Shown here piece after piece: positions 19,246-29,662 of a stretch of 31,218 nt of DNA. Numbering within the stretch: the first letter of the stretch is position 1; the number at the start of each line of letters is the position of its first letter. Source of the stretch: an uncultured Spongiibacteraceae bacterium (GTDB lineage Bacteria > Pseudomonadota > Gammaproteobacteria > Pseudomonadales > DT-91). A program made the translations under genes and the position numbers. The notes below the pieces were generated by a model. It worked only from the letters and a program-made list of their open reading frames with translations. It was not told where the DNA came from and searched no databases. The stretch is taken from the NCBI GenBank assembly GCA_964568295.1, contig CAZMQC010000002.1, positions 1 through 31,218 of the forward strand, given 5' to 3'.

Positions 19246-19560
19246 TTAAGCGTCAACAAGCGCGTTGTTAGACTTAAAGAAACGAACTTTCTTTTCACCT
19301 TCAAAACGGAAGCCAACACGGTCAGCTTTTTGTGTTTGAGGATTAAAGATCGCTACATTAGAAGCATCAATTGCTGCTTCTTTTTCTACGATACCGCCTG
19401 CTTGACCAAGGTTTGGATTGCCGCGTTGGTGTTTTTTAACAACATTAACACCGGCTACGATGAGCTTGCCGTCAGAGCGAACTTTGACAACTTTGCCACG
19501 CTTACCTTTATCTTTTCCTGCGATAACAATTACTTCGTCTTCGCGTTTGATTTTCAACAT
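19246..19560 (-). CDS. rplX: 50S ribosomal protein L24
   Basis: [15 protein letters not shown] (KOW), [16 protein letters not shown]. Confidence 0.99.
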
Positions 19561-19950: not shown

Positions 19951-19981
19951 TTTTTAGCCCCAAAGCTAATAATGCTATTTG

Positions 19982-23041: not shown

Positions 23042-23338
23042 TTACTCAGCCGCTGCAAAGTCAACTTCTTGACCTTGAGCCAAACGAACATAAGCTTTTT
23101 TAGTCATTGGGCGACGTGACAAACCGTAACGGTTACGTTTCACTTTACCTTTTGACTTAATCACTTGTACTTTTTCAACTTTTACACTGAAAAGCTTTTC
23201 AACCGCTTTTTTGATTTCTAATTTAGTAGCATCAACAGCGACTTTAAGTACAATTTGGTTTGCCGTTTCATTTCTCATCACTGCTTTTTCAGAAATGTGA
23301 GGCCCAACTAAAACGGTGTAAATACGTTCTGCATTCAT
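23042..23338 (-). CDS. rplW: 50S ribosomal protein L23
   Basis: [28 protein letters not shown]. Confidence 0.98.
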
Positions 23339-23952
23339 CCCAATAACTCCTCAAATTTCTTTACAGCATCTACAGTGATAATCACTTTTTCGAAGCCAAC
23401 CAAACTCACTGGATCAACCGCTGCAACATCTAGAATATCAACATGAGGCAAGTTCCTTGCTGCCAAGAAAGTGTTCATGTCTAATTCATCAGTGATGATT
23501 AATGCTTTAGCTGCATTCAATGCATTCAATTCTTTTGCCAACAACTTAGTTTTTGGCTCTTCAACTTTGAAGCTTTCAACAACGATTAAACGCTCTTGAC
23601 GCACCAATTCAGACAAGATTGAGCTAATTGCCGCACGATACATTTTGCGATTAACTTTTTGCTCAAAGTTTCTTGGCTTAGCGGCAAATGCAACGCCACC
23701 ACCAATCCAAATTGGGCTACGGATACTACCCGCACGCGCACGACCACTGCCTTTTTGACGAAATGGTTTTTTACCACCACCGCTTACTTCAGCACGTGTT
23801 TTTTGCGCTTTACTTCCTTGACGACCAGCAGCCATATAAGCTGTAACAACCTGATGCACCAAGTCTTCATTATATTCACGGGCAAACGTCTTTTCTGAAA
23901 CAGCAATATTGCCAGCAGACGCATTACCTGGAGTAACAATGCGTAAATCCAT
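23335..23952 (-). CDS. rplD: 50S ribosomal protein L4
   Basis: [28 protein letters not shown]; three tandem ATGs (23958/23955/23952), the last best spaced from the G-rich SD. Confidence 0.98.
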
Positions 23953-23963
23953 CATCATCCCCC

Positions 23964-24599
23964 TTATGCCTTAACTTTAGTAGCAGCGCGCACAATCACA
24001 TCGCCACCTTTTGCACCAGGAACAGCACCTCTTACCAAAAGAAGGCCATTCTCGACATCGACGCGTACAACTTGCAGATTCTGCGTAGTTACCTTCTCAT
24101 CGCCCATATGCCCAGCCATTTTTTTGCCTTTCCATACGCGACCAGGAGATTGACACTGACCTGTTGAACCAGGCGCACGGTGAGACAAAGAGTTACCGTG
24201 CGTTGCATCTTGCATAGCAAAATTCCAACGTTTCACAGTACCTTGAAAACCTTTACCTTTTGATTGACCAGTTACATCAACCAATTGACCTTCTTGGAAC
24301 AAGTCCACAGCCAATTCTTGACCCACTGTATAATCTGCCGCTTCTGTGCGGAACTCCCACAGACCACGACCAGCAGCAACACCTGCTTTAGCAAAATGAC
24401 CACTTTCAGATTTGCTCAAACGCGATGCTTTTTTAGCACCAGCCGTTACTTGCACTGACGAGTAACCATCTTTTTCATTTGTTTTGATTTGAGCAATACG
24501 ATTTGACTCAACTTCGATAACCGTTACAGGAATGGAAACACCATCTTCTGTAAAGATTCGAGTCATGCCGCACTTGCGACCTACTAAGCCTATAGCCAT
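23964..24599 (-). CDS. rplC: 50S ribosomal protein L3
   Basis: [28 protein letters not shown]. Confidence 0.99.
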
Positions 24600-24605
24600 T
24601 ATTGA

Positions 24606-24667
24606 CCTCTCGTGTACGGGGCTTCACCCTCTACGGCCGCTTCGCGTTACACCCGAGTTTAGACGGG
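24606..24667 (-). promoter_or_regulatory. Putative cis-regulatory RNA in the rpsJ-rplC spacer resembling the 23S rRNA H18-H20 junction
   Basis: mRNA reads GUG-UAA-CGC(GAA)GCG-GCCGUAGA-GGG(UGAAG)CCC-CGUA-CAC directly before the rplC SD; see findings. Confidence 0.65.
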
Positions 24668-24685: not shown

Positions 24686-25015
<330 letters not shown>

Positions 25016-25052: not shown

Positions 25053-25081
25053 ATTTTAATTAGCGCGCAACATTCTGTCAA
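25053..25081 (-). promoter_or_regulatory. S10-operon sigma70 promoter
   Basis: TTGACA-N17-TAAAAT followed by the GC-rich TCCGCCTCC. Confidence 0.85.
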
Positions 25082-25146: not shown

Positions 25147-25172
25147 AAAAAAGGCCGAACCTAGGTTCGGCC
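25147..25172 (-). terminator. Intrinsic terminator after tuf
   Basis: 20-bp perfect palindrome GGCCGAACCTAGGTTCGGCC followed by T6 on the minus strand. Confidence 0.9.
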
Positions 25173-29522: not shown

Positions 29523-29604
29523 CTATTTACTCCACATTTCTACACCGCTTTCGCGGCAAACAAACAATAATGGTTGCCCATTATTCACTAAAAAAGGAGG
29601 CAGG

Positions 29605-29633
29605 ATTTTATAGATACCACCCCCCATAGTCAA
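29605..29633 (-). promoter_or_regulatory. str-operon sigma70 promoter
   Basis: TTGACT-N17-TAAAAT followed by CCTGCCTCC. Confidence 0.8.
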
Positions 29634-29662
29634 GCAGTGCAGCTTAAATTCTGCTCAACTGC

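Follow-up and report, generated by a model that had tools for sequence, protein, structure and literature searches.

A near copy of the 23S rRNA H18/H19/H20 junction between rpsJ and rplC in Pseudomonas-like bacteria, a candidate feedback operator of the S10 operon

An rRNA-like three-way junction upstream of rplC

We found that the 86-nt spacer between rpsJ and rplC in an uncultured Spongiibacteraceae bacterium carries, on the minus strand and thus in mRNA sense, an element that mimics the three-way junction of helices H18, H19 and H20 of 23S rRNA, with counterparts in the same spacer of Pseudomonas and its allies (Table 1; the window is the whole analyzed stretch of 31,218 nt). Its fold, its conservation, its likeness to rRNA and its fixed position by the rplC Shine-Dalgarno (SD) sequence, as well as the lack of an enteric-type leader before rpsJ, are shown by the analysis. 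We consider it probable that the element is a translational operator through which free uL4, perhaps along with uL24, represses rplC and the genes coupled downstream of it while sparing rpsJ. The sequence-only reading of this DNA had proposed the mimicry, spelling out the bases from 24652 down to 24612 and quoting the E. coli counterpart; the former are indeed those of the window and the latter agrees with nt 295-343 of MG1655 rrlH, which served as the E. coli 23S reference (GUGGAAGCGUCUGGAAAGGCGCGCGAUACAGGGUGACAGCCCCGUACAC).

Table 1. Parts of the junction mimic and features of the surrounding operon, in window coordinates.
Feature	Position	Strand	Description	Basis
23S H18/H19/H20 mimic, three-way junction	24612..24652	minus	41 bases; approximates E. 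coli 23S nt 295-343	sequence, model R1, 23S alignment
P1 5' strand GUG (H18 equivalent)	24650..24652	minus	23S 295-297; partner 24612-24614 (G-C, U-A, G-C)	
UAA between P1 5' strand (GUG) and H19 equivalent		minus		sequence
H19 equivalent CGC-GAA-GCG	24638..24646	minus	shortened to 3 bp and a triloop	sequence
J19/20 strand GCCGUAGA	24630..24637	minus	23S 317-324; includes the C-NUA-G lone-pair triloop; most conserved single-stranded part	
H20 equivalent GGG-UGAAGC-CCC	24618..24629	minus	23S 325-337	sequence, alignment
J20/18 GUA and P1 3' strand CAC	24612..24617	minus	23S 338-343; CAC at 24614-24612	
rplC SD core GAGG, in GAGAGG	24606..24609	minus	starts 2 nt past P1	
Upstream hairpin CCCG-N8-CGGG	24652..24667	minus	abuts P1; G24652 common to both	
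rplC (uL3)	23964..24599	minus	directly downstream of the element; ATG at 24599	
rplD (uL4)	23335..23958	minus	second gene downstream of the element, 5 nt past rplC; encodes the likeliest ligand	
rplX (uL24)	19246..19560	minus	encodes an alternative or co-ligand candidate	
rpsJ (uS10/NusE)	24686..24997	minus	upstream of the element, outside its direct reach	
Promoter-like TTGACA-17-TAAAAT for rpsJ	25053..25081	minus	11/12 consensus matches; leader about 48 nt	
Intrinsic terminator after tuf	25153..25172	minus		

Alignment to 23S rRNA brings the helix order, the junction strands and the GGGU..AGCCCCGUACAC tract into register with H18/H19/H20, and the likeness ends at nt 295 and 343. We take 23S 295-343 to be the minimal uL4/uL24 fragment of Stelzl and Nierhaus. 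A slightly larger 23S segment that includes the junction (281-359) is reported to interact specifically with uL4 and uL24 only, the two forming a cooperative clamp; in the H18-H20 fragment uL24 makes more close contacts than uL4 and touches both strands of H18 at the junction (PMC6426284).

A covariance model, R1, whose seed comprised related spacers alone and no rRNA, recovered the element as its sole significant match in 31 kb on both strands (24610-24654, minus strand; 50.4 bits, E 1e-13) and matched E. coli 23S at nt 293-345 with nearly the same score (47.2 bits, E 1e-12). The window itself has no rRNA; comparisons of a mimic with the 23S of its own organism were made through the rrn operon beside tufB in P. 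aeruginosa and Marinobacter. R1 gives the P. aeruginosa 23S 68 bits, and the spacer of that organism is identical to it at 41 of 49 positions without a gap, a likeness about equal to that between the P. aeruginosa and E. coli 23S segments themselves. Marinobacter 23S receives 59 bits, and the H19 of the Marinobacter mimic is cut to about 2 bp. The proposed mimicry is therefore borne out by the alignment, by the cross-matches of R1 and by the covariation described below.

Shared with the 23S junction are the helix order, the junction strands, the C-NUA-G triloop, the GGGU..AG..CCC hairpin and GUA-CAC. By contrast, the mimic has an H18 cut to 3 bp (longer in some lineages) and a variable, often truncated H19 that has lost the conserved UGGAA loop, and it sits in an mRNA spacer between protein genes rather than in an rRNA gene. 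A 23S gene or fragment was rejected as an explanation, since the flanks are rpsJ and rplC, the likeness stops at nt 295 and 343, and no LSU family of Rfam matches in the window. The parts that are invariant in the mimic, namely the AA of J18/19, the C-NUA-G strand, GGGU..AG..CCC and GUA, are also strongly conserved in the LSU (Rfam bacterial consensus), whereas the H19 loop varies or vanishes in the mimic although it is equally conserved in 23S. A fixed junction and H20 combined with a free H19 loop is the pattern expected under selection for a protein-contact surface and not for rRNA function.

Comparative support for the fold

When the structure was taken from the 23S model and imposed on 31 distinct cores, 95.2% of the pairs were standard and 7 of 15 pairs were changed on both sides, with none of 500 shuffles as good; RNAalifold, run unguided, arrived at the same three-way junction. 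An enlarged set of 48 distinct model-aligned sequences, in which nearer relatives of the window organism and additional lineages are represented, gave 96.2% standard pair cells and compensatory changes in 8 of 14 pairs (again 0/500 shuffles as good), figures that lean towards the structure because this alignment was fitted to the model. The G-U pairs are compatible with the mRNA strand only. A coding reading of the spacer was ruled out by indels that are not multiples of three and by the compensatory variation of the stems.

The variation is unevenly spread over the junction. The middle pair of P1 is A-U (GAG/CUC) in three sequences and U-G in others, and in H19 all five modeled pairs show compensatory changes across the 48 sequences, with lengths ranging from about 2 bp up to long insertions. 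In J19/20, G, C, C, A and G are invariant in the 31 sequences, fitting the Rfam bacterial LSU consensus aCcAuAga, and in H20 the GGG/CCC stem, the loop U and the loop AG are all invariant. The U of the triloop covaries with 24615 in the GUA strand (U-A replaced by C-G in Microbulbifer), which suggests that the mimic also keeps the non-nested junction contact equivalent to U321:A340; this pair is broken (A.A) in one subgroup (L100/L107). The tufB region of Microbulbifer, sought for comparing the C-G variant of 321:340 with the organism's own rRNA, held no rrn operon.

Several variants carry additional hairpins: one in the H20 loop (L003, 554-619) and others at the tip of H19 (L021, L079, L253, L275, L287, L301 and L317), in each case with the core undisturbed. 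Such insertions mark the tips of H19 and H20 as solvent-exposed and unconstrained.

Folded singly, the window spacer adopts a minimum-energy structure in which the H20 arm alone survives, P1 being absent and the H19 region paired with other bases (z = -1.8); in many relatives, too, the minimum predicted is a fold other than the junction. It is thus the comparison of sequences, and not thermodynamics, that supports the fold. With a closing helix of 3 bp and a junction that is not the minimum of the free RNA, the fold would depend on protein.

Phyletic distribution of the element

We gathered 80 genome loci as relatives of the L3 of the window and cut out the rpsJ-rplC spacer of each. The element is present in 79 of them, where the spacer consensus is GUGUAACGCUCUGAAAUGGGCGGCCAUAGNGGGUNANAGCCCCGUACAC followed a few bases later by GAGG, and R1 finds exactly one match per locus, in the spacer, for every carrier. 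The carriers comprise Pseudomonas and allies, Marinobacterium, Neptuniibacter, Amphritea, Porticoccaceae, Halieaceae, Microbulbifer, Pseudohongiella, Saccharospirillaceae and Endozoicomonas-like symbionts, so that the occurrence in Pseudomonas-like genomes, which the sequence-only reading had mentioned, is now seen in these loci; the sole non-carrier among the 80 is Idiomarina, with a spacer of 38 nt. Two records with unexpected names, 'Pantoea sp. Ap-967' (L045) and 'Pontibacter sp. JAM-7' (L028), have Pseudomonas-type and Neptuniibacter-type loci, respectively, and are probably mislabeled or contaminated. R1 also catches variants outside its seed, both those with hairpins inserted in H19 or in the loop of H20 and a divergent pair, L019 and L029, in which little of H19 remains.

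Among 32 further loci, gathered via relatives of L3, S10 or EF-Tu, 22 have the element and one lineage is without it. That lineage is a GC-rich 'Pseudomonadota bacterium' (L110-L119) whose S10 is 94% identical to that of the window; its spacer of 186-187 nt (e.g., L113:763-949) contains no mimic, which shows that the mimic is not indispensable and has been lost or replaced at least once. The spacer of this lineage is highly structured, with 4-5 predicted hairpins and 5 compensatory pairs; its last predicted helix lies over the rplC SD. The site may here be occupied by a regulatory RNA independent of the mimic.

A metagenome scan used a pattern made of the 3' half, the SD and the ATG only and returned 80 loci. 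Thirty of these are matches to the model, each with at least one of the S10 and L3 genes beside it; the remaining 50 are chance matches with neither gene nearby. Compensatory change and large length variation of H19 recur in the metagenome matches, and the covariation across genomes that the mimic was expected to show is thereby present in the 31- and 48-sequence sets, in the RNAalifold result and in these independent loci. Phage-borne copies were considered and rejected, in that the first 80 pattern matches in IMG/VR were chance matches save for one E. coli-like 23S fragment (L196). In PLSDB, which was searched for Pseudomonadales 23S, the only relevant taxon among the 60 listed of 613 matches was Acinetobacter. 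These figures on distribution apply to close relatives of the L3 and S10 of the window.

This record bears on the idea of a structural or processing role, free of any feedback, be it as an mRNA stabilizer, an RNase site, a docking place for an SrmB-like helicase or a neutral relic of rDNA. We regard such a role as unlikely: the likeness of 41/49 to the organism's own 23S does make an origin from copied rDNA conceivable, but the element persists across the GTDB order Pseudomonadales, has undergone compensatory changes and has indels in H19 alone, its likeness ends exactly at the minimal protein site, and it keeps a fixed distance from the SD. Without selection a relic would have decayed, and an element that only stabilizes mRNA has no need to copy an rRNA junction.

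Position relative to the Shine-Dalgarno sequence and the upstream hairpin

GAGG starts 1-4 nt past P1 in most lineages and 9-12 nt past it in the Marinobacterium/Neptuniibacter group, and the AUG follows P1 at 10-25 nt, depending on the lineage. Between P1 and the SD, a conserved AACUGGCAA is found in the Marinobacterium/Neptuniibacter/Amphritea group (L004, L008, L024, L030, L049, L059, L078 and others) and ACUGG in L100-L109; both appear able to pair 5' of P1, lengthening the H18-like helix to 5-6 bp.

Past the rpsJ stop, nearly every lineage has a hairpin of unrelated sequence and length, placed 0-15 nt before P1 and usually without overlapping it (e.g., GACUUCGGUC in Pseudomonas). It seems to form a module of its own, which could insulate against the ribosomes that end translation at the rpsJ stop, stabilize the mRNA or stack coaxially on P1. 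The sequence-only reading had singled out a CCCG/CGGG hairpin as a competitor for the 5' strand of the junction, and had extended the closing helix by CUC/GAG into the SD. Both hold for the clade of the window, where the hairpin is real and abuts P1, yet neither generalizes: elsewhere the hairpin differs in sequence and usually does not overlap P1, and lineages share no helix that sequesters the SD. The two features are invariant in this small clade (four variants) and only there, and hence show no covariation. A conserved SD-sequestering helix was likewise rejected as a candidate, partition-function folding of 69 distinct spacers having yielded inconsistent partners for the SD (mean SD pairing probability 0.58, with no common helix).

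These observations weigh on a protein-independent RNA switch, in which the upstream hairpin would alternate with an extended closing helix that sequesters the SD. The four variants of the window's clade would suit it, given that CCCG/CGGG shares G24652 with P1 and that CUC can pair with the GAG of the SD; nevertheless, with a hairpin that elsewhere stands clear of P1 by up to 15 nt, with predicted SD partners that vary by lineage, and with the copying of an rRNA protein site in the core left unexplained, we judge it very improbable.

Operon context

[quoted passage not shown] Downstream of the element the genes are separated by 5, -4, 11 and 12 nt, a tight spacing such as translational coupling requires. 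At the boundary of the S10 and spc clusters, the rpsQ-rplN gap (window 19951-19981) measures 31 nt, where E. coli has 164 nt, and both clusters accordingly probably belong to a single transcription unit in the window organism.

Between 24500 and 25300, the only terminator-like site is that of tuf (25172-25153), and there is neither a U tract nor a terminator between the element and rplC. Right past the tuf terminator, rpsJ has a near-consensus promoter of its own and a leader of about 48 nt, leaving the enteric-type attenuator of 172 nt absent, in agreement with the earlier view that this leader is too short for enteric L4 attenuation. In Microbulbifer, an opposite-strand ORF of 158 aa is inserted between tuf and rpsJ (L040:1398-1874). 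As for the neighboring str operon, P. aeruginosa has the Rfam rpsL_pseudo leader upstream of rpsL (L091:6757-6878, 104.7 bits). In the window, where 29523-29662 was the stretch compared, no Rfam family reaches its gathering score anywhere; the str-operon leader of the window organism, if present, differs from the rpsL_pseudo of P. aeruginosa.

Predicted function and candidate ligands

An operator reading draws on the occurrence of a single copy at each locus, without exception between rpsJ and rplC, on the SD adjoining P1 and on the close spacing of the genes that follow. The element would act in cis on the S10-operon mRNA by reproducing the minimal uL4/uL24 site of 23S rRNA. With 23S rRNA in short supply, uL4 left free (its gene is the second one downstream), perhaps joined by uL24, would bind the junction and clamp it; the bound complex near the rplC SD would then block or trap the 30S subunit and reduce the translation of rplC, with rplD, rplW, rplB and further genes following through translational coupling or polarity. 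Lying upstream of the element, rpsJ (uS10/NusE) would escape. We infer both the identity of the bound protein and the repression on binding. The computation separates uL4 from uL24 in neither direction, and our preference for uL4 is by analogy with E. coli and from the proximity of its gene.

That uL24 alone is the ligand, the upstream operator sensing free uL24 as the initiator of 50S assembly with S10-spc acting effectively as one unit, strikes us as improbable. We know of no autoregulation by uL24 in any bacterium; rplX is 11 genes and about 5 kb downstream, whereas known autoregulators usually act near their own gene, and the established regulator of the S10 operon is uL4 and not uL24. On the side of uL24 are its greater number of close contacts with H18-H20, including both strands of H18 (PMC6426284), the location of rplX on the same strand and the rpsQ-rplN gap of 31 nt versus 164 nt in E. 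coli. A further point against uL24 is that the mimic retains just 3 bp of H18.

Returning to uL4, we entertain as a tentative and rather doubtful elaboration that uL4 and uL24 form a two-protein sensor, assembling cooperatively on the mRNA copy, and that the element may have arisen by capture of rDNA rather than by convergence. If this were so, the fused S10-spc unit would be throttled only when both of these early 50S assembly proteins are in excess, and a miniature first step of 50S assembly, carried out on mRNA, would gauge the supply of rRNA.

Relationship to known regulatory RNAs and significance

uL4 is a known regulator of the S10 operon of E. coli. The S10 leader of that organism (Zengel and Lindahl) concerns the same operon and the same likely regulator, and follows the same logic, with free uL4 divided between domain I of 23S rRNA and its own mRNA. 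The arrangement nevertheless differs: the E. coli site is a 172-nt 5' leader before rpsJ, acts with NusA at a terminator hairpin (HE), represses rpsJ too and has no visible likeness to 23S in sequence or secondary structure, whereas the present element lies downstream of rpsJ, has no terminator or U tract, cannot act directly on rpsJ and is a near copy of 23S. Searching the E. coli S10 region, leader included, with R1 gave nothing better than E 0.33; Rfam includes no family for that leader against which the reverse comparison could be made.

According to a 2024 review, conservation of the uL4 regulatory site extends to enterobacteria, Haemophilus and Vibrio and does not include Pseudomonas (PMC10931766). 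In Pseudomonadaceae, Fu et al. (2013) found no more than sequences similar to HG, the final hairpin of the enteric leader (PMC3616713). The mimic presumably stands in place of the enteric S10 leader, a view that fits its distribution (absent from E. coli and Idiomarina).

Operators that imitate rRNA from within an operon or beside an RBS are known for other ribosomal proteins, e.g., the S8 site at rplE in spc, the S7 site between rpsL and rpsG, and those of L1, L20 and S15. Like the present element they are intercistronic or RBS-proximal and reach distal genes by repression and coupling, with upstream genes spared or indirectly affected; they differ in the protein and the fold, and the likeness to rRNA sequence is far closer here than in most. 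Three features by which ribosomal-protein leaders are recognized are found here: a covarying structure, next to the RBS of a ribosomal-protein gene, that resembles the rRNA site of a protein of the same operon. Eckert and Weinberg (2020) list a uL4 candidate for Archaeoglobi only (PMC7247131); that family, L4-Archaeoglobi in Rfam, is likewise a uL4 candidate from comparative genomics upstream of rplC-rplD, but it is archaeal and structurally unrelated to the element described here.

Scanned against Rfam 15, neither the window nor the P. aeruginosa spacer gave a match for the element at gathering score or at E <= 10, with rpsL_pseudo, found in the same P. aeruginosa locus, as the positive control; the earlier opinion that no characterized family covers it accordingly stands, although the silence of Rfam 15 is weak evidence of novelty because it also lacks the classical E. 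coli S10 leader. The open full-text literature, as distinct from subscription-only papers, yielded no description of the element. The regulatory logic, feedback by a ribosomal protein through an rRNA look-alike, is familiar; what departs from the known case is the RNA itself, where it lies in the operon and how it probably acts. The element is probably a feedback operator, new to knowledge, that matches ribosomal-protein output to rRNA supply in Pseudomonas-like bacteria.

Pseudomonas lacks the uL4 leader mechanism of E. coli (PMC10931766; PMC3616713). As to how the at least 11 proteins of the S10 operon are balanced against rRNA outside the enterics, the element offers a concrete answer, open to experiment, for an entire order with P. 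aeruginosa and P. putida among its members. With 41/49 identical bases and edges coinciding with those of the minimal fragment, it would rank among the plainest cases of rRNA mimicry in an mRNA. It would also serve as a natural minimal substrate for the study of uL4/uL24 recognition, one that can do without the H19 arm but keeps the junction and H20 unchanged. Set beside the enteric leader, it would mean that the same regulatory need has been met by unrelated RNAs at different places of one operon.
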